A DNA stretch of 64,000 nt, taken from NCBI GenBank assembly GCA_024679065.1, contig JAGIQG010000011.1, positions 60,264,001 to 60,328,000 on the forward strand, given 5' to 3'. This stretch comes from Sphyrna mokarran. Its lineage: Eukaryota. Below, one piece after another: positions 3,697 through 64,000 of the stretch. Each line of letters opens with the position of its first letter. The first letter of the stretch is position 1. The notes under the pieces are model-generated. The model worked only from the letters and a program-made list of their open reading frames with translations, did not search any database and had not been told where the DNA came from. The position numbers and the translations under genes are program-made.

Positions 3697-3730
3697 TGCC
3701 TGAGGAAGACACAGGAGTCGAAAGCTCGCG
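3697..3730 (+). ncRNA. Minimal type I hammerhead ribozyme motif in a PLE-end fragment (element continues to ~3790)
   Basis: UGC-CUGAGGA-A-GAC-ACAGGA-GUC-GAAA-GC-UC-GCG: intact core boxes, 3-bp stems I and II. Followed by the same caaataaa..gttgga.t.taa..tggtgttg tail as the other PLE ends. Confidence 0.55.
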
Positions 3731-4029
3731 TTTTTACTATCAAATAAATCAGTTGGATTATAAATTGGTGTTGCTAAATTCTTACTGAGTTCTTACCAAA
3801 CTGAAGGAATACAGAGAGCAGGGGATGTGAGGTGGTGAGTGGAAAAGATATTTGGGTTGCAATGCCAGCCATCTTTAATGTGAAGCAAGTTAACTCTCTT
3901 TCAAGATTGCTGCCCACAATAGCACAGGCTGCCTCAGATCAAGCTCATGTTAAAGTGGGGACATTAGTTAGACTTAATGGAAAAGAGAAAAGAATCCCAT
4001 TTATAAATCATCTTCTGATGTGTTAAAAA

Positions 4030-4574: not shown

Positions 4575-4865
4575 ATTTATTTATTAGTGTCACAAGTAAG
4601 CTTACATTAACACTGCAATGAAGTTACTGTGAAAATCCCCTAGTCGTCACACTCTGGCGGTTTGTTGGGTATACTGAGGGAGAATTTAGCAGGGCCAATA
4701 CACCTAACCAGCAGTTCTTTTGCATTCTGGGAGAGAGAACTGGAGCACTTGGAGAAAACCCATGCAGACATGGGGAGAATGTGCATATTCTGCACAGACG
4801 ATAATCCAAGCCGGGAATCGAACCCAGGTCTCTGGTGTTGCAAGGTAGCAGTACTAACCATTGAC
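4575..4865 (-). mobile_element. HE1-type SINE (tail B)
   Basis: tttattagtgtcacaagtaagcttacattaacactgcaatgaagttactgtgaaaatcccc tail plus V core and tRNA head. Confidence 0.88.
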
Positions 4866-8762: not shown

Positions 8763-9102
8763 GTGACAAGCATTATCACTTCACCACTCACCACAAAACC
8801 CAAGCCTCATTTTGGAATATATTAGTATATACCACTAAAATTAGATGCAGCGTGATCTATTTGTCACCTGATAGCAATATTAACTGAAATATCTGGAATT
8901 TGATCACAATTTTCTTCATCTAAAAAAAAAAATCTTTTTCGAATCTGTATTATTCTTAACCAAAGTGCTGTTAGTCTCCAAGCACCTGAAACTTCGCCAG
9001 GATGGTCTTTTCACTAAGGATAACCCCCAGTTCTGCATGAAAATGGAAAAAACAGCAGGGGGCATAAGGCTGTGAAAATGAGGAGTTTTAATCAAAAACA
9101 GC

Positions 9103-9388
9103 AGCTTGGTGGCACAGTGATTGGCACTGCTGCCTCACAGCAACAAGGACCCTGCTTCAATTCTTGACTTGGATTACTGTCTATGCAGAGTTTGCAAGTT
9201 CGTCCCATGACTGCATGGATTTTCTCCAGGTGCTCCGGTTTCTTCCCACTGTCCAAAAGACTTGCTTGTTAGGTGCATCATTAAATTCTCCCTCAATATA
9301 CCCAAACAGGAGAGTGGAGACTAGGGGATTTTCACAGTAACTTCATTGCAGTGTTAATGTAAGCCTACTTGTGACGCTAATAAATAAA
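9103..9388 (+). mobile_element. HE1-type SINE (tail B)
   Basis: ggtggcacagtgattggcactgctgcctcacagc...ttttcacagtaacttcattgcagtgttaatgtaagcctacttgtgac..taataaa. Confidence 0.9.
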
Positions 9389-10309: not shown

Positions 10310-10592
10310 CAGCAGTGCTGCCTCACAGCACCAGAGATCTGTGTTCAATTCTCAGCATGGGTTACTGTCTGTGTGTATTCAGCAAATTTTCCCTGTGTCT
10401 ACTTGAGTTTCCTCCGGATGCTCCAGCTTCCTCCCATAGTCCAAACAACATGCTGGTTAGGTACACTGGTAATGCTAAATTCTCTCAGTGTTACTGAACA
10501 AGCGCCAGAGTGTGATGACTAGAAGATTTTCACAGTAACTTCACTGCAGTATTAACGTAAGCTTAGATGTGACACTAACAAATAAACTTTAA
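10310..10592 (+). mobile_element. HE1-type SINE (tail B)
   Basis: Same head, core and tail B. Confidence 0.88.
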
Positions 10593-11665
10593 ACATGTTC
10601 CTACTTGCAATGTCCAGAACTCATATCAAACCTTAGACTGAGTTGGACAACAAAGTCAATCCATTCAAAGCCCCTTTGTTCATTCTTTCTACCACACCAT
10701 GCATGTCAGTAGATCTTGCATACATCTGTTTACATGCAACTAAATTCTGCTTCACTGGAGCATTATGAATCATACAGTATGGGCAGTGGAGAACTAAATA
10801 AATATCAGACAGATATCAGTAGCTGGAGACAGACTTTTGAACACGTCTGTCTTTGCAGGTGATCAGGGCCGAAATGTGTAATATTTGAATAACTAAAGAA
10901 GCTATAGACATGTCACCGGCTTAAATCCAAGAAAGAAATATTAAAATGTTCAACCTCTGAGTAAAAGAGGGTTGATAAGTCCCCAGAATGCATTTAAATC
11001 TGTTCAGAGAAACCTTTGTCAGAATTAAAAGGTAAATATGATGTAAAATTGCCAAATACAATGAACAATGTTTAAATTATGGCACACGACAAGCTTGGAG
11101 AAAGCAGAAAGCCCACAGTGGACAAGAAAGTGAAATACGTTAGTTCAATTCTGAACAGAAATGAATGCTCAGCTCCTTGAACAATTAGTATGGCTCCAAT
11201 GTGACACTTAGATATTAATAAAAATGTTCTTGTGCCTGTTTTGTGGACATCTCAATAGAACAATACCCAGAGGCATTGATCCCACGATCAAGTTCACGTT
11301 CTTACTTAAATATGCAAATAATATCTAATGTCTGTTAAAGGACTCATGAGGAACTGATCACCGATGATTGAGGCAGCAGTTGGGTTTGGCCCACTTGGAG
11401 TTCTTCAATGGCCCACCACACAAATTTAATCACTTCCATTTATTTCACTGAAAAAAAAGACACACATCGAAGGGAGTCAGAAGGGATAAGAATATTTCCC
11501 TTACTCCACAGGAAATATGATCACCACCTACCTCCCCTGCTTTTATTGTCCCAAAGCTCATCTTTGGGTTGTTATTAGACAATACAGGCAGATTAATATT
11601 GACATCACTTCGCTGATGAGACAATTCACCTGAGCACAAATTGTTCAACCTCCCCACTAAATAGC

Positions 11666-18782: not shown

Positions 18783-19047
18783 AATGGTTAGCACTGCTGC
18801 CTCACAGCACCAGGAACCCAGGTTTGATTCCTGGCTTGGGTTGTTTTCTGTGTGGAATCTATACATTCTCTCTGTATGCTCCAGCTTCCTCCCACAGTCC
18901 AAAAGACGTGCTGGTTAGGTGCACTGACCATGCTAAATTCTCCCTCAATGTACCCAAATAGGTGCCGGAGTCTGGTAATTAGGGGACTTTTACAATAATT
19001 TCATTGCAGTGTTAATGTAAGCCTACTTGTGACACTAACAAATAAAT
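18783..19047 (+). mobile_element. HE1-type SINE (tail B)
   Basis: tggttagcactgctgcctcacagc...gcctacttgtgacactaacaaataaa. Confidence 0.9.
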
Positions 19048-20249
19048 ATCTAGTGGAAGAAATTCCAAATATTCAGTATGCTGCAAATTAGAAATCTACC
19101 TCCTTGCTTTCATACATCATTCATTTGGAAACTCACGCTATTTCTCTCCACACATTCAATAGCTTCTTCAAATATCCTTCTGTTCATCTCCTGGAAATTT
19201 AGTTAGTTAGTTCTTCTTCTCATATCCTATTATATGTTGCCTCTTTGGATAACTTACTGCATGAAAAGAAACCATATAAAAAGGTACAAGGTAGCGATCT
19301 GCATTACGTAGCTCTAATTTTGGCTGGACTTGTGATATAATTTCCAGTCCCAAACTCCATTCATGTTCAGTGTCAATTATTATAAATAACTTCAGGTAAT
19401 AATGAGCTGTGCAATATACTGGTACTGTATTGGAAACTGAATGCTCCACAAGTACACTAAGCTCAAGATAAACTGCAACAAAGTGGCATAAATAGAAAAT
19501 TAATACATCAATTATACAATAAATGCTGACCACATGGGGAAAATCTTAGAAGTTAATACTCTATTAAGACAACACATAATTGAAAATATACTAACAAGCA
19601 CATTCAACACTGCACAGTGAAGTTAAGATTGTAAACTCGGATGCAAAATATTGTGTGATGAACTGTTCTCCCAAATGGTATACAATTGAAATCTTTCACT
19701 AATAGCATATTCTGTCATATAGCACCACCGACATCTCCATAATAGTTGTGAAGGATATTGAATCATTAAAAAAAATTGTTGCACTGTAATTTAAATCACC
19801 TTGCTCATTAGAATATATTACGTTCCTTGACACAACCTTATTCATTAATTTGCTATCACTATAGTACAAAAGAATGCATCACAGCAATGAGAACATAGTT
19901 CCTTGGTGCCAGTTTTGCAATAGTGCTAGAACTGCTTCTGATAATGAGCTGATTCAGATAAGATGGTCTCATCCAATTATGCTGTGGAACATGTAGAAAT
20001 CCTGCAGTGGATTTTTAAAAGCAACTTGGGTACTCATAGAACAAATGTTCTTAACCCCCAAATATTCAAAGTAGATAATTACTTCATCAATTGTTTCAAA
20101 ATAATCCAGTAGATCTCACTAACAATCCAAGGCTGGTAATTGGAATCAGTAATTTTTGCGTGTATGGGCCTGTTCCATTTGTAAGTATGGATAAGTCATA
20201 TAACCAGTTATCTGAAGGTGTATTTGTATTGTGGCTTTCACATTTTTAG

Positions 20250-22924: not shown

Positions 22925-23217
22925 TATTTTTATTTGTCACAAGTAGGCTTACGTTAACGTTGCAATGAAGTTACTGTGAAAATCCTCTGGTCGCTACACT
23001 CTGGCACCTGTTCAGGTAAACTGAGAGAGAATGTAGCATGGCCAATACACCAAACTAGCATATCTTTCAGACTGTGGGAGGAAACCGGAGCACCCAGAGG
23101 AAACCCATGCAGACACGAGGAGAACATGCAAACTCCACACAGACAGTGACCCAAGACAGGAATTGAACTCAGGCCCCTGGTGCTGTGTGGCAGCAGTGTT
23201 AACCATTGTACCACCCA
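22925..23217 (-). mobile_element. HE1-type SINE (tail B), full length
   Basis: Antisense tail B, core and head. Confidence 0.92.
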
Positions 23218-26569: not shown

Positions 26570-26856
26570 AAAGTTTTTTAAAGTTTATTTATTAGTCACA
26601 GACAGGCAATGAAATTATTGTGAAAATCCCCTTGTCATCACATTCCAGCACCTGTTTGGGTACACGGAAGGAGAATCTAACAGCAATACACCTAACCAGC
26701 AAATCTTTCAGACAATGGGAGAAACAGGAGCACCGGAGGAAACTCATGCAGATGTGGGGAAGAATGTGCAGACTCCGCACAGTGACCTCAGGCAGGAATC
26801 AAACCCAGGTTCCTGGCTGTGAGGCAGCAGTGCTAACGCCTCTGCCACCGTGCTGC
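26570..26856 (-). mobile_element. HE1-type SINE (tail B)
   Basis: Antisense tail B, core and head. Confidence 0.88.
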
Positions 26857-27707
26857 TAGGGGAAAAGAGCAGCAAATTTCAGAAAGATGTGTGGGGGATG
26901 TGGAGCACTCCAGTAATAACCATCTTGTCAACCAGCAGCAATGAGTTTCTACCTGATTGATTAGAAAGAAGGTCTTGTCCTACAAGGATGTAGATGTCAG
27001 CAACAACCAGCAGTGGTAGACTGAGCTTCCTGAGATATTAATGTTCACACATGTCAATTAGCTAATCTTCTGCCAATAGATCCTGTTTTGGCTGGAGTGA
27101 TGGTGGGATCTCTATGACCAGCTCCTTTGCACTGTGAAATGGCAGTGGAGAAGGCACCCAACATTCCTGTTGCTGTTATTGTTGCTGCTCGTCTTGTTCT
27201 TCATCTGAGGTGCAAGGTGGAGGTGCATTGCTCCATGCCTTACAGAAAGCTGTCAGCAGGAAAGTGAGCAAAGAGCAAGACTGGCTTCGAAAAAGCAGAG
27301 GTTGCCTGGCAAACATTAAGAGCACATTCTTAGAAGAGATGCTGCAATCTCTCACCAATATCACTGCCGTTCTTTAATTTTGTTCTTTGAAGGCTTCCCA
27401 GCCTGTCAGTTTCACTTAACCAAACCATGCCGTGTCTTGCCTCATTGAACCTGAAAGCTCTGCACAGCTCAAGAAGCCCATACATTGGTTGTTAAAGCCA
27501 GAATACCAGGTGAAATCAGGAGTTAATTACCCCTTTACATATTTTAACAACTCAACAATTGCATAAAGGTTTCTGGTTGCCTGAAAACTCACCTAGTCTA
27601 CATCCAGAAGTGGATGGGATCTTGTCGGTTTCCCAACCTGACTACTTTTCAGCCTTTTAAACCCCCACCTGGACCCTAATCCATTTCCCCAAGACCTTTA
27701 AAATTCT

Positions 27708-27937
27708 TAGTAAGAAGTCTCACAACACCAAGTTAAAATCCAACAGGTCTATTTGGCAACACTAGCTTTCGGAGCTTCAAACTCCTTCATCAGGTGAGGC
27801 AGCTGATGAAGGAGCTTGAGGCTCCACAAGCTAGTGCTGCCAAATAGACCTGTTGGACTTTAACGTGGAGTTGTGGAATTTCTACTATGTTTACCCCAGT
27901 CCAATGCCAGCATCTCCACATCATGGCTATCAGTGAC
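27708..27937 (+). mobile_element. Fold-back Penelope-like (PLE) terminal fragment with inverted 5' copy and 14-bp TSD
   Basis: Inverted arms ~27709-27794 and ~27801-27886. Flanking direct repeat acctttaaaattct (27694-27707) / acctttaaagttct (27938-27951). Same family as 3697-3790, 35875-35991 and 63518-63729. Confidence 0.75.
27760..27796 (-). ncRNA. Minimal type I hammerhead ribozyme motif (intact core)
   Basis: Minus strand reads CAC-CUGAUGA-A-GGAGU-UUGAA-GCUCC-GAAA-GC-UA-GUG: stem I CAC/GUG, core CUGAUGA, stem II GGAGU/GCUCC, GAAA, and palindromic AGCU in place of stem III, ending in a UH cleavage site. Confidence 0.7.
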
Positions 27938-28609
27938 ACCTTTAAAGTTCTCCCCAAGCAGTAAGTAGAAGAGTAATAATAAGATTGATGAAGTCCCATG
28001 TCAGTGCCCAGCGGCTCATGTGTAGATACCCATTACTTTGTATTTACTTCAAAAACTCATTGCTAATTGGTCAAATTTGCAGAAAATACAAACAAGAAAG
28101 GACAGTTGAATTTGAGGAGACAGTGTGAGGCATAAAATTCCACATATGCCAAATGTCGGACTTTTTTGCGGCTTGCCAACCTATTAAGCAATATGTCAAC
28201 TTTTCAGCCTTTTACATGAGATATCAGCTTTCTGTGGTTATATAAAACCAGGAAATTTGGGAATAGGCGGCAATTAACATTTACCAAAAGTAAAAGTGGG
28301 TTACGATATTTCTGGGCCAAACCACACATCTGGTGCAGCTGGAAGCTGTTAGAATATATCAGCCAGAAGTTACTTTGGCTGCCACATTTTAGTAATAAAA
28401 CAGTGACTGTATTTCATGAATATTGCATTAGCTGTGAAGAGGATGTCCTGAGGATGCATAAGGCACATTTCAAAACCAATTCTTTATTTACTGCTGCATG
28501 GTCTGTCAGCTGCTTCAGAAATATTGAGTAGTTTTTGTCGGTTTTATATAAGTTGGGGTGTATGAAATACTTTAGGCAAAACAGAAAATATGATTCAACA
28601 CTCAACGTA

Positions 28610-29260
28610 AGACCATAAGAAATAAGTACAGGAATGGGCCATTCGGCCCATTGATCCACCATTTAATAGGATCATGGCTGATCTGATATTCACTTTCCTG
28701 CTCATTCCCCATAACCCTCAATCCCCTTAATGATCAAAAATATATCTAACTCGGCCTTAAATGTACATAAGATTCTTCCTCTACAGCTCTCAATGGTAAG
28801 AAGTTCCAAAAACTCAACTCTCTGAGAGAAGGAATTCCTCCTCATTTCAGTTATAAATTGATGCTCCTTTATTCTGAGACTATACCCTCTGGTCCTGGAC
28901 TCTCCCATTAGGAAAAGCATCCAACCTGAGAAGCTCCTTAAGAATCCTATATGTTTAAATGAGATCACTTCTCATCCTTCTACATTCCAATGGGTAAAGT
29001 CCCAACCTGTTTAACTTTTGCCCATAAGACAATTCCTCCACAGCGGGGATAAATCTAGTCAACTTTCTCTGAACTGCTCCAATGAAATAATAGCTTTCCT
29101 TATATAAAAGGATCAAAACTACTAACAATATTCCAGGTGTGGTCTCTTGTACAGCTGCAGCAAGACTTCCTTACTCTTATATTCCAATTCCCTTGAAATA
29201 GGGGCCAACATTCTAATAGCCTTCCTGAGTACTTGCTGCATTTGTGTTTTGTGCACAAGT
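28610..29260 (-). mobile_element. CR1 LINE 3' fragment
   Basis: LEYKSKEVLLQLYK.RPHLEYC and GESRTRGYSLRI...RRNSFSQRV; tail taagaccataagaaataag. Confidence 0.88.
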
Positions 29261-31858: not shown

Positions 31859-32323
31859 CAAATCTGGATGGTCAGTATTGAGGCAAGGAATTTATCTACC
31901 TAGGACAAAGCATTTTTTATATGTTAGGGAACCACCTGTTCCATTGCTTGTAAACACTAGTCAGGAAAGGAGCTGGATAATTGACCAGACATCCAGAAAA
32001 CAAAAGTGAACAATTTTACCCTGAGTTACCAGTTAGCTGGGCACAGCCATTGTATACACATAAAGACCTGGCAGGGAGTACATGTGGCACCAACTTTTTC
32101 CCATTGCGCCTCTGCAGCAGCTGCTGCAAGCATCCTTCAGCACATAATCCTGGACCTTGTAATGTGCCAGTTTGTGACACTTTATCATGACAACTCTAGA
32201 CATTGGAGGACTAAGAGGTTTTCAAAAGAAAAAAGATTGTCTTCCATTGAGTTGATGATCCATAAATGTTTCTCTTTATCAAGCATGAGCTGTGCCAAAT
32301 ACTGGGGGTGCTAAAACATGCGC
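31859..32323 (-). repeat. Left arm of ~460-bp inverted duplication (contains a Tx1/L1-like ORF2 C-terminal remnant)
   Basis: Reverse complement aligns end to end with 34111-34584. Confidence 0.92.
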
Positions 32324-32804
32324 AACTTTTCAAACCTCAGTATATGTACAAAGACTGTGCACAGTGAAATAGGATGCTTAAAAGCTGTTTCCATCTCTGA
32401 ATGGCAACATACTCAAATATCACAGGATGAACGCAAGTGTGAGAACAGGAGAGAAAGTGTTCCATATATCCACATTTTTGGAACATTAAAAACAAATGAA
32501 ATAAGGAAATTGCTTCTTTAAAAGTGAACCAAAATTTAAAATTTTAGCAGAGTTACTGGCTTTCAGAATAATTTGAGCTCTAAATCTTTCTCTTTCTCCT
32601 AGCATTCATCAAACATTGTAACATTGGAATTTGCTCTCAAGGTGAGAATCTTTGGGATAAAACATGATTGGATGAAATTTAATGAACTTGAAGTTATTCT
32701 CTGTATGTGAATGGGTGACCCTCAGAATAAAAACAAGCAAACATCTAGAAACATTCAGATGATTTGCCGATTTTTTAAATTATTTTTGTTGATACTTAGA
32801 TTTG

Positions 32805-33610
32805 AAACAAAGAAGTTTGGAAAAGGAGGAGGCCATTTGATCCTTCGAACCTACTCCATCATTCATTACAATCATGGATGATCATCCAGCTTAATAGTCT
32901 AATCCTGCTTTTTCCCCAAAACGTTTGATCCCATTCACCCAAGTGCTATATCCAGCTCTTCTTGATGATATTCAATGTTTTAGCATCAACTACTTCCTGT
33001 GGTAATAAATTCCACAGGCTAATCACTCTTTGGGTGAAGAAATGTCTCCTCACCATCATCCTAAACGGTCAATCCTGAATCCTCAGACTGTGACCCCTGG
33101 TTCTGGACACCCCCACCAGTGGGAATATCCTCCCTGCATCTACCCTGTCTAGTCCTGTTAAAATGTTATAAGTCTCTATGAGATTTTCCCCTCATTTGTC
33201 TGAACTCCAGCAAAAACAGTCCTAATCTAGTCAATCTGTCCTCATAATCAATCCTGCCATCCCCAAAAATCAACCTGGTAAACGCTTGAGAGCAAAAGCA
33301 TCCTTTCTCAGAAAAGGAGACCAAAACGACACATAATATTCTAGGTGTGGTCTCACCAAGGCTCTGAATAATTGCAACAACATATCTCTGCTGATGTACT
33401 CAACTTCTCACAATGAAGGCCAACATGCCATTTCCTTCTTTATCTCCTGCATGCTTATCTTCAGTGACTGGTGCACAAGGACACCTAAGTCCCACTGCAC
33501 ATTCCCCCCTCCCAATTTACAACCATTCAGATAGTAATCTGCCTTCTTGTTTTTGTTTCCAAATCTGAATAACCTCACATTGATCCAAATTATACTGCAT
33601 CCAAATTTCA
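32805..33610 (-). mobile_element. CR1 LINE 3' fragment
   Basis: FGNKNKKADYYLNG...DLGVLVHQSLK plus a typical CR1 3'UTR. Confidence 0.88.
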
Positions 33611-34110: not shown

Positions 34111-34584
34111 GCTCATATTGCAGCACCCCCAGTATTTGGCACAGCTCATGCTTGATAAAGAGAAACATTTCTGGATTGTCAACTCAGTGGAAGACAATCT
34201 TTGTTTTTTTGGAAACCTGTTGACTCTCCAGTGTCAAGAGTTGTCCATGACGGAATGTTGCAAACTGGCACATTACAAGGTCCAGATCTATGTGCTGAGG
34301 GATGCAGTAAAGCTTGGGGCAGCTGCTGTAGAGGCACAATGGAAAAAGATTGGTGCTGCATACACTACCTGCCAGGCCTTTATGTGTATACAATGGCTGT
34401 GCCCAGCTAACTGTTAGCTCAGGTTAAAATTGTTCACTTTTGTTTTCTGGATGTGTGGTCAATTATCTGGCTCCGTTCCTGACTAGTGTTTATAAGCAAT
34501 GGAACAGGTGGTTCCCTAATATATGAAAAATGCTTTGTCTTAGGTAGATAAAGTCCTTGGCTTAATGTTGACCATTCAGATTTG
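34111..34584 (+). repeat. Right arm of inverted duplication (Tx1/L1-like ORF2 C-terminal remnant at ~34150-34350)
   Basis: Translation IVNSVEDNL..GNLL.LQ.QELS.TECCKLAHYKVQ.YVLRDAVKLGAAAVEAQW resembles the C-terminus of Tx1-type ORF2 (recalled, not searched). Confidence 0.9.
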
Positions 34585-35484: not shown

Positions 35485-35775
35485 AAGTCTATTTATTTAT
35501 TAATCACAAGTAGCTTACATTAACACTGCAATGAAGATACTGTGAAATCCCCTAGTTGCCACACTCCAGCACCTGTTCAAGTACACTGAAAGAGAATTTA
35601 GCATGGTTGATGCACTTAACCAGCAGGTCTTTCAGACTGTGGAAGGAAACTAGAGCACCTGGAGGAAACCCATGTGGACATGGGGAGAATGTGCAAACTC
35701 CACACAGACAGTGAGCCGAGCCGGGAATCGAACCCTAGTTTCTGGCAGTGTGAGGCAAAAATGCTAACCACTATT
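35485..35775 (-). mobile_element. HE1-type SINE (tail B)
   Basis: Antisense tail B, core and head. Confidence 0.88.
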
Positions 35776-35874
35776 TATTATCCCATCTTGACAGCCTCAC
35801 CATTTAGATTGACAAAACAAATGAAAAGCATATTACAAAAGTTCATATTGAAGCATGCCTGCTACTGAGTAGAA

Positions 35875-35991
35875 AGTCACACAACACCACTATCAAATTA
35901 CTATCAAATAAAATGGTTGGACTTTAACCTGGTGATGTGAGACTTCTTACTGTGTTTACCTCAGTTCAACACCAGCATCTCTACATCATGG
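35875..35991 (+). mobile_element. Short PLE terminal fragment, hammerhead part missing, 12-bp TSD
   Basis: Perfect direct repeat tactgagtagaa at 35863-35874 and 35992-36003 flanks gttggactttaacctggtgatgtgagacttcttactgtg...catctctacatcatgg. Confidence 0.7.
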
Positions 35992-36574
35992 TACTGAGTA
36001 GAACAAAGCTGCCTGATGTTGATTCTAATTCAGGGAATTCCAATTGAGTTTTTGAAGTAAACATTGAAAGGATCTAAGATTAAATACATTCATGCATGAT
36101 GGCAAGGAGTTTCTAATGATAAAGGCATTAGAATCTAATGTAATGGTGGAATTAATTTTAGGAGGATATTCTTTTCCAATGACTTTAACAATGCTGTAAA
36201 TGGTCAAAAAGGAATAACTGTTTGTGTATACAGAATTAGGGGAAAGCTTTTATGTTCTGAACACAAGAACCCATTTGTAATACAAATGCACAATGTAAAC
36301 ATCTTGTCACCTTTAGTAAAAGTACAAAGTGTACTCTCATGTTTAACTCTGCCCAGGTATAATGTACACACTCTAAAACTCTCCCTACTCTCTAACTGCA
36401 AGATAACACAAAAGTTCAATGCTTTTTGTTACTGGTTGTAATGCAGTAAATGTATTTTCTTTCTATGGATTTTACTTTTTCTAAAGAATGAATTTTGAAA
36501 GTTCTGGACCATTTTCATAATAGTAATATAAGGCATTAGCCCCTCAAGCCTATTCCACCATTCTGACCTATATA

Positions 36575-46144: not shown

Positions 46145-47810
46145 AAAAATGACTGAGGAACTAAATTTGTATATTTTTCATTGCTTCTGTCTTCACAAAG
46201 GAAGATATGTACTGGCAGTTTTGAGAAACACAAATTTAATTGAGGAGCTGAAGGAAATCAATATTAATGGTTTTGGGGAAATTAATGGGATTGAAGGTGG
46301 TTAAATCCCCAAGGCCTGATAATCTTCATCCCAGAGTACTTAAGCAAGTGACCCTAGAAATAGTAGATCCATTGGTGGTCATTTTCCAAAATTCTTTGGG
46401 CTCTGGACTGATTCCTACAGGTTGGAGAGTAGTTAATACATGTCTGCTATTCAAAAAGGTACAGAAAACAGGGAACTCAAGACCAGTGAGTCTAATGTTA
46501 GTAGTAGAGAAGTTGTTAGTGTCCATCAACAAGGATTTTATAACACAACTATGGAAAGCAGTGGTATAATCAGACAAAGTCAGTATGGATTTACAAAAAG
46601 TAAACTATACTTGACAAATCTACTGGAATTCTTTAGGGATATAACTAGTAAAGTTCACCAAGGAAAACCAATGCATGTGGTTTATTTAGATTTTCAAAAG
46701 GCTTACAACAAGGTCTCATACAGCTGATTACTACGTAAAGTTAAAGCACATGAGGTTGTGTGTAGTGTCATGAAATAGTTAGAAAAATAATTAGCAGACA
46801 GAAAGAAAAGAATCTTTTTCTGACTGACAGGCAATGAGTAGTAGAGTACTACAAGGATCTATTCACACTATATATTAATGATTGGGATGAGGGAAGTAAG
46901 TGCATTATCTCCACATTTCAGATAATATAAAATTGGGTGGGAGGGTGAACTATGAGAAGGATGCAGACATGCTGCAACATGATTTGGCAGGCTGAGTGAG
47001 TGGACATCTGCATTACAGTTGCAGTATAAATGTAAGATTATCTACTTTGGTAGCAAAAATAGGAAGCAGATTATTATTTCAATGGATGTAAATAGACAGA
47101 AGTGGATACTCAGTGAGATCCTGGTCCTTGTGCATCAGTCACTGAAAGCAAGCACACAGGTACAATAAACAGTAAAGAAAGCAAATTGTATTTTGGCCTT
47201 CACGGTGAGAAGATTTGAATATAGGAATAGAGATGTTTTACTGCAATTGTATAAGATGTCGGTAAGGCTATACCTGGACTATAGAGTGCAGTTTTGGTGT
47301 TCTTATGTGAGGAAGGATGTTCTTGCAATAGAGGGAGTGCAGCAAAGATTTACTAGGCTGATTCCTGGCTTGGTAGGACTGCTGTATGAGGAGAGACTAA
47401 GTCAGTTAGGATTATATTCCTTAGAGATCAGAAGAGTGAGAGGGGATCTCATAGCAAGTTTTGAAATTCTAATAAGGTTAGACAGAGTTGATGTAGAAAG
47501 AATGTTCCTAATGTGGGAAAGTCCAGAACTTGGGGTCCTAACTCTTTAAGGACTGAGACTTAGTTTCTTCACCCAGAGAGTGGTGAATCTGTGGAGTTCA
47601 CTACCACAGTAAGTAGTTGAGGCCAAACATTGTATGATTTCAAGAAGGAATTAGATATAGCACTTGGGGCTAAAAGGATCAATTGATATGGATGGGGCAG
47701 AGGCAGGATCAGCGTATTGAATATGACTAGCCATGTTCGTTATGAATGATGGAGAAGACTCAAAGATCTAATGACCTAGGCCTACTTTTATTTTCTAGGT
47801 ATTATGTAAT
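46145..47810 (+). mobile_element. Decayed CR1 LINE (RT region to 3' tail)
   Basis: ORF fragments KSPRPDNLHPRVLK, RPVSL, QYGF..LTNLLEFF, VVYLDFQKAYNKV and VRLYLDYRVQFW, broken by stops and frameshifts. Confidence 0.92.
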
Positions 47811-54676: not shown

Positions 54677-56045
54677 AGAACATAGAACATAGAACATTAC
54701 AGCACAGAACAGGCCCTTCGGCCTTCGATGTTGCGCCGACCAATATAAAAAGCAATGCCCCTCCAAACTAAACCATTCCCTTCTCTTCCATATACTTATC
54801 AACTAACCTCTTAAACGCCACCAAACTTGGCGCATCTACAACTGCTGCAGGCAGGGCATTCCACTCCCGAACCACCCTTTGGGTAAAGAACCTACCTCTG
54901 ATATCCGTCCTATAACTATCACCCCTTAATTTAAAGCTGTGTCCCCTCGTGCTAGCTTTCTCCATCCTAGGAAAAAGGCTATCACTGTCCACCCTATCTA
55001 AACCTCTAATCATCTTATATGTTTCGATAAGGTCCCCTCTTAGCCGCCTCCTTTCTAACGAAAACAACCTCAAATCCCTCAGCCTCTCTTCATAAGACCT
55101 GCCCTCCATACCAGGCAACATCCTGGTAAACCTCCTCTGTACCCTCTCCAATGCCTCCACATCTTTCTTATAATGTGGGGACCAGAACTGCACACAATAC
55201 TCCAAGTGCGGCCGCACTAGAGTTTTGTACAGTTGCAACATGACGTTGTGGCTCCGAAATTCAATCCCTCTACCAATAAAAGCCAAGACTCCATATGCCT
55301 TCCTAACAACCTTCTCGACCTGACTGCCTACTTTCAGGGATCTATGCACATACACACCAAGATCCCTCTGTTCATCTAGACTACTAAGAATCCTACCATT
55401 TGCCCTATACTCTACACATTTATTATTTCTGCCATAGTGCATTACCTCACACTTTTCCACATTAAACTCCATTTGCCACCTCTCGGCCCAGCTCTGCAAC
55501 TTGTCCAAGTCCCTCTGCAAACTATAACACCCCTCTTCACTATCTACCACTCCACCGACTTTAGTGTCATCTGCAAATTTACTAATCCATCCTTCAATAC
55601 CCTCATCCAGATCATTTATAAAAATTACAAACAGCAGGGGCCCCAAAACAGACCCCTGAGGTACACCACTTGTCACCGAACTCCAAGATGAATATCTCCC
55701 ATCAACCACCACCCTCTGTCTTCTATCTGCTAGCCAATTCCTAACCCAATTAGCTAAATCACCCTCTATCCCATACATCTGCATTTTCTGCAGAAGTCTT
55801 CCATGGGCCACCTTATCAAACGCCTTACTAAAGTCCATATATACCACATCAACCGCCTTACCCCCATCCACCTCTTTGGTCACTTTTTCAAAAAACTCAA
55901 TGAGGTTAGTAAGGCACGACCTACCCTTCACAAAACCATGCTGACTATCTCCAATCAATTCATTACTCTCTAAATAACTATAAATCCTATCCCTAATTAT
56001 TCTCTCCAATACTTTGCCCACCACAGAAGTAAGACTCACTGGCCT
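54677..56045 (-). mobile_element. Young CR1-clade LINE, 3' part (RT domain to tail); open ORF 54768-56039
   Basis: Uninterrupted 423 aa with QHGF..GRSCLTNL, YMDFSKAFDKV, GVPQGSVLGPLLF, KFADDTK and [15 protein letters not shown]. 3' tail is a (TTCTATG)n microsatellite on the minus strand. Confidence 0.97.
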
Positions 56046-57400
56046 TAGAACATAGATGACATAGAACTGAACAATACAGCACAGACAGGCACTTCGGCCT
56101 CGATGTTGTGCCGACCAAATATAAAAAGCAATGCCCCTCTAACTAAACCATCCCTCTCATCCATATACTTATCAACTAACCTCTTAAACGCCACCAAAAT
56201 TGGCGCATCTACAACAGCTGCAGCAGGGCATCCAGTCCCTAATCACTCTTGAGTAAAGAAACTACCTCTGATGTCCGTCCTATAACTTCATACCCCTTAA
56301 TTTAAGTTGTGTCCCCTCGTGCTAGCTTTTTCATCCTAGGAAAAAGGATCACGTCCAACCCTATCCAAACCTCTAATTTATCTTATATGTTTCAAGTAGA
56401 TTCCCCCCTTAGCCGCCTCCTTTCTAACGAAAACAGCCTCAAATCCTTCATCCTCTCTTCATAGGACCTGCCCTCCATACCAGGCAACATCCTAGTAAAC
56501 CTCCTCTGTACCCTCTCCAATGCCTCCACATCTTTCTTATATGTGGCGACCAGAACTGCACACAATACTCCAAGTGCGGCCGCACTAGAGTTTTGTACAG
56601 CTGCAACATGATGCTGCGGCTCCTAAATTCAATCCCCCTACCAATAAAAGCTAAGACTCATAAGCCTTCTTAACAACTTTATCCNNNNNNNNNNNNNNNN
56701 NNNNNNNNNNNNNNNNNNNNNNNNNNNNNNNNNNNNNNNNNNNNNNNNNNNNNNNNNNNNNNNNNNNNNNNNNNNNNNNNNNNNACCAATAAAAGTAAGA
56801 CTCCATATGCCTTCTTAACAACCGTCTTGACTTGACTGCCTACTTTCAGGGATCTATGCACAAATACACCAAGATCCCTCTGTTCATCAACACTATTAAG
56901 AATCCTACCATTAGCCCTATACTCTACACATTTATTATTCCTGCCAAAGTGCATTACCTCAACACTTTTCCACATTAAACTCCGTTTGCCACCTCTCGGC
57001 CCAGCTCTGCAACTTGTCCAAGTCACTCTGAAACTAAAACCCCCTCTCACTATCTACCACACCACCAACTTTAGTATCATCTGCAAATTTATGATCATCC
57101 CTCAATACCCTCATCCAGACATTATAAAAATTACAAACAGCAGGGGCCCCAAAACAGACCCCTGGAGGAAACCACTCTGTCACCGAACTCCACGAAGAAA
57201 ATCTCCCATCAACCACCACCCTCTGTCTTCTATCTGCCAGCCAATTTCTAATCCCATTAGCTAAATCACCCTCTATTCCACACATCTGCATTTTCTGTAG
57301 AAGTCTTCCATGGGCCACCTTATCAAAAGCCTTACTAAAGTCCATATATACTACATCAACCGCCTTACCCCCATCCACCTCTCTGGTCACTTTCTCAAAA
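56046..57400 (-). mobile_element. 5'-truncated CR1 copy of the same family nested in the host CR1 (contains the assembly gap)
   Basis: Repeats the tail and RT 3' region of 54677-55895 with many 1-bp indels. Its 5' end is at ...FEKVTREVDGG. Confidence 0.9.
56685..56784. other. Assembly gap (100 N)
   Basis: Run of n read directly. Confidence 1.
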
Positions 57401-57410
57401 ATTATAGTGA

Positions 57411-58622
57411 CTATAATTCCCTGGAAGGTCTCTCTTCCCCTTCTTGAAGAACGGGACCACATTCGCTATCCTCCAGTCCTCCGGAACCACACCCGTAACC
57501 AACGACGACCTGAAGATCAGAGCCAGAGGCTCTGCAATCTCCTCTCTTGCCTCCCAGAGAATCCTAGGGTAAATCCCGTCCGGCCCAGGGGACTTATCCA
57601 ACTTCAAACCCTCGAGAATATCTAGCACATCCTCCCTATCTACTTCAATACTTTCCAGTTTGCAACCCTGTACCTCAGTGTTCTCCATAACTACATTTAC
57701 ATCACCCTGCGTGAATACCGAAGAGAAATATTTATTCAGTGCCTCTCCAATCTCTTCAGGCTCCACGCACAACTTCCCACTGCTGTCTATGACTGGCCCT
57801 AATCTTGCCCTAACCAATCTTCTGTTCTTAACATATCTAAAGAAAGCTTTAGGATTCTCCCTAATCCTATCAGCCAAAGTCTTCTCGTGTCCTCTCTTGC
57901 TCTCCTCAATTCACTCTTTAGCTCCCTCCTGGCTAATCTATAGCTATCCATTGCACTAACCGAGCCTTCAAGCCTCATCCTGACATAAGCCTCCTTTTTC
58001 CTTTTAACTAGCAAATCAACTTTTTTCGTACACCAAGGTTCTCTTACTCGACCATTTCCTCCTTGCCTGACAGGGACATACTTATCAAGGACTCGCAGCA
58101 GCTGCTCCTTGAATAAGCTCCACATTCCAGATGTTCCCAGTCCCTGTAGTTTCCTAGTCCAATCTATGCACCCTAATTCTCTCCTGATGGCCTCATAATT
58201 ACCCTTCCCCCAGCTATAACTACTGCCCCCAGCTTCATGCCTATCCCTATCCATCACTAAGGTGAACGTAACCGAATTGTGGTCACTATCACCAAAATGT
58301 TCACTAACTTCCAAGCCTAACACCTGGTCTGGCTCATTGCCCAGCACCAAATCCAATGTAGCCTCACCTCTAGTTGGCCTATCTACATACTGAGTCAAAA
58401 AACCTTCCTGCACACTTTGTACGAAAACTGACCCCTCTAACGAGCTAGAGCTATAGCTATTCCAATCAATATTAGTAAAGTTAAAGTCCCCCATAACAAT
58501 TACCCTATTACTTTCACTCCTGACCAGAATTGACTTTGCAATCCTTTCCTCTACCTCTCTAGAACTTTTAGGAGGTCTATAAAAGACTCCCAACAGGGTG
58601 ACCTCTCCTTTCCTGTTTCTAA
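57411..58622 (-). mobile_element. Young CR1 LINE, 5' part (APE endonuclease C-terminus and linker), one frameshift
   Basis: GVFYRPP, VMGDFNF, PTRGEATLDLVL, GDSDHN, KSPGPDGI and ...DLPGNY in ORFs 57799-58593 and 57395-57877. Confidence 0.95.
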
Positions 58623-59079
58623 GGAGGAAAAGACCAGTTCAAAACCCGGTGAAAATCTGTAACACTGGCAGCAGTAATATTGAAGTTCCATTGTAAGCTG
58701 CACAATATCATTTCAGGCAAGTTTTACCAGTACCCTTCAATTCCAGATTTTCTTATCTGCAGTCTGCCTCTTAAAAAAAAAATGGCCTTCTATCAGCAAC
58801 GCTGCAAACACAGGTAAAGCACTAGGCCAGGCAAGTGCACTATCAAGGCAGGCATGAAGGAAATATACCAATGGTGAATAATTAAGTAATGTATTGATTA
58901 TTGGAAGTTTTGGATAACGTTCATATGAAGTAGTTGCCATTTTGTGTTATTTTAATTTTAGGATTGTGACCAAGTGAACTGTTTACGATCCAGAACAGAG
59001 GATAGTAAGCTGGGAAAATGTTGAACAATGTAGATCTGATCACCCAATTTGAGAGTTATTGGACTTCCTCCTCCTCCTG

Positions 59080-62525: not shown

Positions 62526-63517
62526 CATCAAATCCATCTTCAAGTGCCATGTGTTGTCAAGTGCAGTGTTGGCCTCAGACACATCTACTCGAAGTATTAT
62601 GTTATGCCAGAAAATTAAAAGAATAAAATCCTTCTCAAATGCTTTTGAACAAAAAACATGTGATTGGGAAATGGAAGTTAAATTCTTCAAAATGCAACCG
62701 CTTCTCTTCCCCTTCCTTTCAATCCCATCATTTACCACCCCATTCCTGGAAAAAGAGATAACAGTCTGCAACCACTGCCTCTTGGATCTACAAAGGCACT
62801 GCTTCTTTAATTGGACAAACAGTTGATAACATGCTTTTCTCATGCTTTGTGGTAGTATGCAGCACTCATTCATTCTCTTTCCTTGATGGTCATTCCAAGG
62901 TTAAAGCTGACAGAAATCAGAGGCCTGTAATCTTTTAATATTATTACAGAGTTACAGGCTGCTTTTAAAACTTGTTGCAATTTTCCTTTCTTTTAACATA
63001 CCAAAGATCATTAAGTAGAAATGTCTATTTTAAACAACTGGTTCCATAATTGACATGAATAATTTTAAGGACTTGGCCAGAGTAGTTTGGTTATAGACAT
63101 TTTCATCTGAATTTCTACCTAGTTCTAAGGTCAGGATAAGAACTCATCGTTCTAGAGCTGCCCAAAGGTTTAGCCCCTTGTAATGCTCTGACAAATCTGT
63201 GAAATCTTGCAAGCTAATATGGTCAGAGAGGATACAAGCCCTAATCTGGATGAATTGCATTCATGCATTATTAACATTCAGGATGAGATAGCAAAGGTAC
63301 TATTTTATGTCAGACAATCTCTATCATTCAGACCAGACAGCATCTGTGGAGAGAGAATAGAGCCAATGTTTCAAATCAGGATGACCAGAAAAAGGGTTTC
63401 ACAGCCTGGATCGCTCATAAGGAGCACCGTAGTATGCACCATGGATTGTTTGTCAGATTACTGTGATCTGCTGTGCCCCACAAAACCCACTGGAGCAAAG
63501 AGGTGAGGAATTGATGA

Positions 63518-63729
63518 CAGTAAGAAGTTTCACAATGCCAGATTAAAGTCCAACAGGTTTAGTTGGAATTATGAGATTTCAGAGAGCAGCTCCTTCATTA
63601 GGTGACTCAATTGATGAAGGGGCAGTGCTCCAAAAGCTCGTGATTCCAAATAAACCTGTTGGACTTTAATGTGGTGTTGTGAGGCTTCTTACTGTCCCCA
63701 TCCCAGTCCAATGCCTGCATTCCCATATC
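63518..63729 (+). mobile_element. Fold-back PLE terminal fragment with two decayed hammerhead motifs and 12-bp TSD
   Basis: Inverted arms ~63518-63604 and ~63608-63694. TSD aggaattgatga (63506-63517) / aggaattggtga (63730-63741). Both cores are mutated. Confidence 0.75.
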
Positions 63730-64000
63730 AGGAATTGGTGAGATTAGGGGGTTGTTGTGGAATGATGTGACACTGCATCCTCTGATGCCATCATCCTTAG
63801 ATATCTGGCTTGTGCAGACTATAGATTTGGGCATGAGTGTCTTCCAGCCAGAGTGGAGGTGAAAAATATTGCTGGTTCTGGTTTGCCAGAGGTATGAGAT
63901 TGAGTACAGGTTCCTCTGAATCCTGCAGAGGATTCAGAAGAGCATTTTGATGGGGCATTCTGCAAAGAATGCTGAGGTGTATGCACCACAAAATGCTGCA

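Follow-up and report, generated by a model that had tools for sequence, protein, structure and literature searches.

Penelope-like elements (PLEs) typically carry an inverted copy of their 5' end together with a tail on one side only, a layout whose mechanism is called undefined by Craig et al. (PMC8557442). Inverted terminal copies, target duplications of 8-10 bp, a tail overlapping the start of the open reading frame (ORF) and palindromic head-to-head junctions are described by Arkhipova et al. (PMC3846280), and a 34-bp repeat located at the ORF start was reported by Schostak et al. (PMC2377424). PLEs also carry minimal hammerhead ribozymes, which according to Cervera and de la Pena (2014, PMC4209133) occur as opposite-strand pairs 100-700 bp apart and as thousands of single truncated copies per genome; in that paper the monomer did not cleave and dimers cleaved little, and in Drosophila virilis the end of an intron coincides with the 5' boundary of helix I. 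For the Poseidon element PAc of Anolis carolinensis, Frangieh et al. (2024, PMC11167929) showed that the two strands of the target are both cut and extended, that the RNA used is uncleaved, and that the hammerhead requires protein for its cleavage. The cDNA of PAc starts 111-118 nt past the start codon, with a second start that lies a 30-40 nt tail earlier. Metazoan non-LTR retrozymes (PMC7229834; Li et al., bioRxiv 10.64898/2026.07.22.740005) are short, non-coding, hammerhead-bearing kin of PLE terminal repeats, and they form head-to-tail tandems able to cleave as dimers. The report by Li et al. ties the tandem retrozymes to PLE terminal repeats, gives cleavage for 1 of 9 tested dimers, and mentions non-LTR retrozymes in one chondrichthyan genome.

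The insertion described here, unit A, measures 230 bp and lies in a 64-kb stretch of Sphyrna mokarran DNA, hereafter called the window (Table 1). In agreement with the original prediction, it is flanked on both sides by a 14-bp direct repeat with 1 mismatch (13/14 positions match), and it consists of two inverted arms plus a short tail. The arms, which had been expected to measure about 85 bp, are 84 nt long (27713-27796 and 27800-27883) and 86% complementary, and the tail has 51 nt. Random pairs of 44-nt stretches from the window shared a 14-mer with at most 1 mismatch in 13 of 20000 cases. Aligned with each other, the two arms show differences in 12 of 85 columns, of which 7 are transitions, 4 transversions and one a gap, and the minus strand of the unit folds at -137.2 kcal/mol (z -14.5), a stability that was reached by 0 of 200 shuffles. 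Unit A holds no ORF. It thus lacks the RT and GIY-YIG ORF of an autonomous EN+ PLE and is classed as PLE-derived rather than as an autonomous PLE. By analogy with described elements, an ATG at 27923 inside the tail is possibly the candidate start of the parent ORF.

Unit A belongs to a known kind of feature, in which a minimal hammerhead is found within an inverted insertion of terminal repeats, probably those of a PLE. Inverted ends, one-sided tails, target duplications and opposite-strand hammerhead pairs have all been published for PLEs, and unit A stands out only in that another insertion in its neighbourhood, copy B, is joined at the same spot. The Penelope elements of Adineta vaga and D. 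virilis, as described in PMC3846280, PMC2377424 and PMC8557442, share with unit A the inverted 5' terminal copy, the target duplication, the head-to-head junction and a tail at one end, which in their case measures 30-40 bp and overlaps the ORF start. In those elements an ORF or captured DNA lies between direct repeats and the duplications measure 8-10 bp, whereas unit A has no body and the duplications in its family measure 12-14 bp. Our preferred reading, which we hold to be reasonably probable, is that unit A is a dead insertion made by a PLE protein, in which two terminal-repeat copies stand head to head because cDNA was primed on both target strands and then joined.

Table 1. Positions in the window of unit A, its relatives and neighbouring features.
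Feature	Position	Strand	Details
Left target-site duplication, unit A	27694..27707	+	14 bp
Inverted tail-less copy of element end, unit A	27708..27797	-	outer end +80 from A9 of own core
Minimal type I hammerhead, unit A	27760..27796	-	core intact; C3 27793; AGCU replaces stem III
Head-to-head junction, unit A	27794..27802	.	9 nt between cores; centre base G
Direct copy of element end, unit A	27798..27886	+	decayed hammerhead 27800-27836
One-sided tail, unit A	27887..27937	+	51 nt; ends +129 from A9
Right target-site duplication, unit A	27938..27951	+	
Copy C	3697..3787	+	single divergent tail-less arm, ~60% identical; intact core; different stems
Copy D	35863..36003	+	inverted arm of ~15-25 nt; direct arm without core; 40-nt tail
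Copy B	63506..63743	+	independent fold-back insertion, sister subfamily; both cores decayed; 36-nt tail
Extended-synaptotagmin exons 1-3	21967-21593, 7123-6959, 2720-2553	-	PF17047 E 7e-11; E-Syt2 structure 4P42 E 5e-8
LINE, AP-endonuclease and RT frames	54771-58638	-	PF14529, PF00078; only RT in window

The minus-strand arm had been predicted to hold a hammerhead with every core nucleotide intact, and this is indeed the case from C3 to N17, the A at 27763 after which the cut is predicted. Stem I has 3 bp and stem II 5-6 bp, an unpaired A follows A9, a G10.1-C11.1 pair opens stem II, and GAAA and the AGCU palindrome are in place. The core, the extra A, the G10.1-C11.1 pair and the palindrome together uphold the assignment to the PLE-type minimal hammerheads. 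The same core boxes, an unpaired base between positions 9 and 10.1, the G10.1-C11.1 pair, a palindrome at 15.2/16.2, a short stem I and the absence of stem III characterize the hammerheads described in PMC4209133. Compared with the pairs in that paper, the cores of unit A, with their stems of 3 and 5-6 bp, lie only 9 nt apart; a shark example was sought in two of its supplement files and was not found there. The plus-strand core at 27803-27833 has GAAA changed to ACAA, as had been noted, so that G12 and A13 are altered, and its first stem I pair is broken as well. Among the 5 cores in the window, CUGANGA ... GAAA ... UH is complete in 2, that of the minus arm of unit A (27793-27763) and that of copy C.

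A strict descriptor of the minimal hammerhead found 2 sites in the 64 kb, both in the repeat family of unit A, as compared to 1 match in total in 300 shuffles, while a loose core pattern was not significant (8 matches in the window against 5.5 expected). Rfam at the gathering threshold gave 0 matches over the whole window. At E values up to 10, no hammerhead family was among the 13 Rfam matches of unit A, all of which were under the gathering score and most of which were miRNA hairpin models. The hammerhead search proposed at the outset was positive with the descriptor and negative with the Rfam models; an Rfam match is not expected for a motif that has no stem III.

Over the 5 arms with a core, 82% of the cells of stems I and II are paired, and 4 of the 9 pairs are altered on both sides. 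Pairing this high was seen in 5-10 of 500 shuffles, and slid controls were paired at 27-51%. Since 3 of the 4 double-sided changes come from copy C alone, whose core is intact and whose stem changes are compensatory, this covariation is suggestive only. By our estimate, 2 intact cores out of 5 is about what a decay of 7-10% per arm would leave, so that no selection is required and the copies may well be neutral. These data bear on the view that unit A is a DNA-transposon MITE or fold-back element that resembles a hammerhead by chance. Long inverted arms and a flanking duplication would suit such an element. However, the inverted repeat stops short of the right end, where the 51-nt tail is unpaired, so that terminal inverted repeats are not present at both ends. 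Moreover, some arms occur solo, as in copy C, and others follow a long upstream sequence, as in P0002 and P0005 (see below), the core was kept while stem pairs changed on both sides, and the 2 descriptor matches stand against the single one in 300 shuffles. We regard this view as the least probable of all those considered.

The state of the ribozyme was assessed by folding computations. Stems I and II form with a probability of 0.97-1.0 in the isolated minus arm, and the probability of the hammerhead stems is 0.0 in the whole of unit A, with or without 300-nt flanks. Forcing the hammerhead fold inside the unit carries a penalty of 41.6 kcal/mol, and on minus-strand transcription the antisense arm comes first. 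Because the two cores lie on opposite strands, a single transcript has one sense core only, and their opposed orientation makes a dimer within one transcript impossible. This modelling suggests that the intact ribozyme of unit A is probably silent, as a monomer buried in the hairpin. The original prediction had pointed out the back-to-back pair and the intact core on the strand of the neighbouring gene. A special meaning of either was not supported, as the cores are opposed, the sense core pairs with the antisense arm, and the core is sequestered with a pair probability of 0.0. An intact ribozyme core in DNA may thus be unable to fold in its own transcript, and caution is also called for because such hairpins score as microRNA precursors.

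The gene in question was said to be ESYT3, with unit A about 5.5 kb upstream. An extended synaptotagmin is indeed encoded there, an assignment at the level of the family, and the first ATG of the exon-1 frame (21967, minus strand) is 5727 bp from unit A; the paralog ESYT3 was not confirmed. The position of an intact core on the strand of the gene, 5.7 kb upstream of this ATG, could be taken to indicate that a ribozyme or hairpin was domesticated for the regulation of the extended-synaptotagmin gene. Against this, the arms have diverged at 12/85 columns, the core is monomeric, without stem III and sequestered, and similar copies are scattered over the window. In addition, single minimal hammerheads failed to cleave in the assays given in PMC4209133. 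Domestication is therefore very improbable.

Unit A had been suggested to belong to a repeat family, and a combination of blastn and profile searches of the window confirmed this with 4 insertions in 64 kb. The repeat is presumably abundant in shark assemblies. Copy B is flanked by a 14-bp duplication with 2 mismatches (63506-63519 and 63730-63743), its outer left end lies at most 4 nt from that of unit A, and its junction (63602-63610) has the same 9 nt between the cores, with C as the centre base. Copy D has a perfect 12-bp duplication (35863-35874 and 35992-36003) and a junction that differs from those of A and B; its short inverted piece is weak when taken alone (blastn E 0.045, nhmmer E 1.8). 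For copy C, neither a partner arm nor a duplication was found. It lies in the intron between exons 2 and 3 of the extended synaptotagmin, antisense to the gene, and it represents a second intact minimal hammerhead in the window, from a divergent subfamily. Thus, 3 of the 4 copies have duplications of 12-14 bp that abut their ends (A 14, B 14, D 12), and the tails measure 51 nt in A, 36 nt in B and 40 nt in D. The Penelope-style combination that had been foreseen, with an inverted, tail-less 5' arm, a one-sided tail and a target duplication, is present in these three copies. All 4 copies are single or inverted, and none shows the head-to-tail tandem hammerhead units of retrozymes. Unit A differs from the retrozymes in PMC7229834 and bioRxiv 10.64898/2026.07.22.740005 in being head to head, with one sense core per strand.

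Several bases at the end of the copy D duplication (35863-35874) are similar to the short end of the element itself, and in unit A the first 3 bases of the left duplication may double as the last 3 of the element's right, long end. These resemblances possibly reflect microhomology-aided priming. At 35875-35905, the direct arm of copy D starts about 6 nt downstream of the place where the ribozyme of copy C would cut, and a short local duplication is found there; copy D could have been derived from cleaved RNA, unlike A and B.

When counted from A9, the ends of the copies fall into a tail-less class (+76, +80, +82) and a tailed class (+113, +118, +129). These positions can be compared with those of PAc, because the template printed in PMC11167929 places the A of the start codon at A9, as counted by eye. 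In PAc, as in unit A, two end points lie beyond a minimal hammerhead, with about 35-50 nt between them and the distal one near +111-118, a likeness that concerns offsets and not sequences. By this analogy, the end offsets in the window match the two RT start sites and the tail of the lizard PLE. In PAc the palindrome is ACGU and the ORF begins within the ribozyme (PMC11167929), whereas in unit A the arm frames are closed and the sole candidate for an ORF start lies close to where the tail ends.

The 9-nt spacing common to A and B is not due to chance. It is found in 2 of the 3 inverted copies, namely the two full fold-backs with both cores. The original prediction had considered a fixed short non-autonomous family. 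Such a family would have a palindromic master, or one per subfamily, that was retrotransposed whole by a PLE protein. In favour of this view, A and B are alike in the 9-nt centre, the layout, the left end (within 4 nt) and the 14-bp duplication, and non-autonomous PLE derivatives have been reported (PMC8557442; bioRxiv 10.64898/2026.07.22.740005). The identical spacing, which a fixed master would also predict, counts against our preferred reading. On the other hand, when all four arms from A and B are aligned, 7 columns group by copy (5 substitutions, one of them alignment-dependent, and an indel of 2 nt in the loop), 1 informative column groups by side (a CpG at G12) and 1 is crossed; other side-columns were tail or edge gaps and were dropped from the count. 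This indicates that the two arms of each unit came from that unit's own subfamily, and that each fold-back probably arose anew at a junction hotspot rather than from a single fixed master. It should be noted that arm-to-arm gene conversion could mimic this pattern and that the arm identities separate the copies poorly (74/87 for A-left/A-right, 68/86 for B-left/B-right and 70/86 for A-left/B-right). Further points against a fixed family are the different centre base, the tails of 51 and 36 nt, the other junction in copy D, the apparent mixed-family pair P0003 with its junction 8 nt shorter (see below), and the block of the ribozyme by an 84-bp hairpin. The predicted family was supported in part, by the junction spacing and outer end of B, and weakened by arms that vary by copy, by the junction of D, and by outside relatives that continue into non-palindromic sequence (P0002, P0005). 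Altogether, we consider it rather unlikely.

We also searched for a parent ORF and for relatives outside the window. A Pfam scan of 246 window frames (all 236 of at least 62 aa and 10 short ones at the copies) revealed no RT/GIY-YIG ORF of a PLE, only a CR1-type LINE, and no ORF remnant adjoining any of the 4 copies. Searches against longer proteins retained 0 of 1 candidate for the antisense frame and 0 of 53 for P0002, and no PLE protein was found. P0002 and P0005, short predicted proteins from ENA records, end in the frame of the arm after a common, non-palindromic upstream segment, which indicates that the arm also ends a longer element. The protein searches gave no link from either of them to a PLE protein, and no usable match for P0002 or the exon-1 peptide was found in the Atlas. 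We take residues 35-46 of P0002 to resemble the C-terminal end of fish PLE endonucleases, a likeness that was unsupported by Pfam, by the Atlas and by a search of supplements. Profile A3 gave 5 of 92, among them P0006 and P0007, which have only the upstream segment in common. The junction profile gave 4 protein matches, including P0001 and P0004, which were dropped as chance or low complexity.

P0003 (WP_185167814.1) comes from a 548-bp contig labelled Proteus mirabilis, and its second half is the frame of the arm. This 'hypothetical protein' is a reading frame of the animal repeat described here, and the record is probably contaminating host DNA. In bacterial and archaeal genomes, 3 matches were found, all of 22-23 nt, by chance and without extension, and phage and plasmid collections contained no copies of the arm. 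The first half of P0003 fits the antisense of an ACGU-type hammerhead that ends exactly at the join, while 12 of 2000 shuffles gave a fit anywhere, and the same test on a window control returned AGCU. The junction would be 8 nt shorter than that of unit A, as judged at the protein level from a single record. If read correctly, P0003 is a head-to-head pair of two families, for which two templates are needed, and in this way the record suggests two different templates.

These records are relevant for the view that unit A is a deletion remnant of a full-length PLE, arranged as inverted repeat, direct repeat, ORF and direct repeat plus tail, that lost its body by direct-repeat recombination, or else that it arose from one cDNA which snapped back and primed itself at the 5' end of the repeat. 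The full-length layout with its duplication, solo repeats and palindromic junctions are described for rotifer PLEs (PMC3846280), and either route would give a fixed junction and within-copy identity of the arms. However, P0002 and P0005 have no palindrome upstream of the core, none of the 4 copies is adjoined by an ORF remnant, and neither route can yield a mixed-family pair such as P0003 seems to be. This view is accordingly improbable.

According to our preferred reading of priming on two strands, a protein with RT and GIY-YIG domains would have nicked the target on both strands, with 12-14 nt between the nicks. From each 3' end, cDNA would then have been primed on element RNA, a distal start giving an arm with a tail and a proximal start giving an arm without one. 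Both cDNAs would have stopped at the 5' edge of an uncleaved hammerhead and been joined there, and fill-in would have yielded the target duplication. If joining took place at the hammerhead edge, the fold-back was rebuilt at this hotspot in separate events and not inherited from one palindromic master. Since the joints in A and in B both lie away from the cleavage site, the templates appear to have been uncleaved, as in the anole assay. The cDNA end at stem I may represent either the 5' end of the RNA or a block by a folded ribozyme-protein complex. The hammerhead would have worked, if at all, in tandem parent transcripts, as a dimer or as a protein-assisted ribozyme, and in unit A it would be a passenger that is buried in the hairpin and decaying. 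It counts against this reading that the Pfam and protein searches tied no RT or GIY-YIG ORF to the arm, and that PMC3846280 prefers self-priming at the palindrome over two-strand priming.

A more specific proposal, which we put forward tentatively, is that the 5' edge of the uncleaved hammerhead serves as a programmed stop and joint, at which two RNAs, even from different families, are fused head to head with a 3-base overlap and a central mismatch. Such an overlap would leave G or C as the centre base at random, G in A and C in B. If this is true, two-template priming would be favoured over the self-priming model of PMC3846280, and the repeat would document on a large natural scale the formation of PLE inverted repeats, the step called undefined in PMC8557442.

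With three relatives in the same 64 kb and no sign of function, the single locus matters little. The family may nevertheless interest transposon specialists, since the origin of the inverted ends and one-sided tails of PLEs is unsettled, and the question can be addressed by counting within one assembly when insertions are short, cleanly duplicated at the target, of two end classes and recurrent in their junction. The open-licence literature searched gave no description of the family of unit A or of ORF-less fixed-junction pairs, and motif searches returned unrelated listings.

Lastly, several other features of the window should be mentioned. On the strand antisense to each core, the junctions of A and B (27788-27802 and 63596-63610) have what we take to be a resemblance to a strong 5' splice-donor consensus. 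This donor-like reading is probably incidental, and the same applies to the AP-1-like heptamer at the centre of copy B. The LINE at 54771-58638, which we take to be CR1-like, is partly duplicated around a 100-base assembly gap, and older LINE fragments lie near 29100, 32800-33600, 46200-47800 and 50800. An abundant repeat of about 280 bp, probably a SINE, has copies that are 70-80% identical at 4576-4863, 9100-9388, 10311-10593, 18783-19049, 22929-23215, 26606-26857, 35490-35772 and elsewhere. An inverted pair of about 470 bp (31859-32323 and 34111-34584; 86% identical and about 1.8 kb apart) possibly represents the ends of a DNA transposon.
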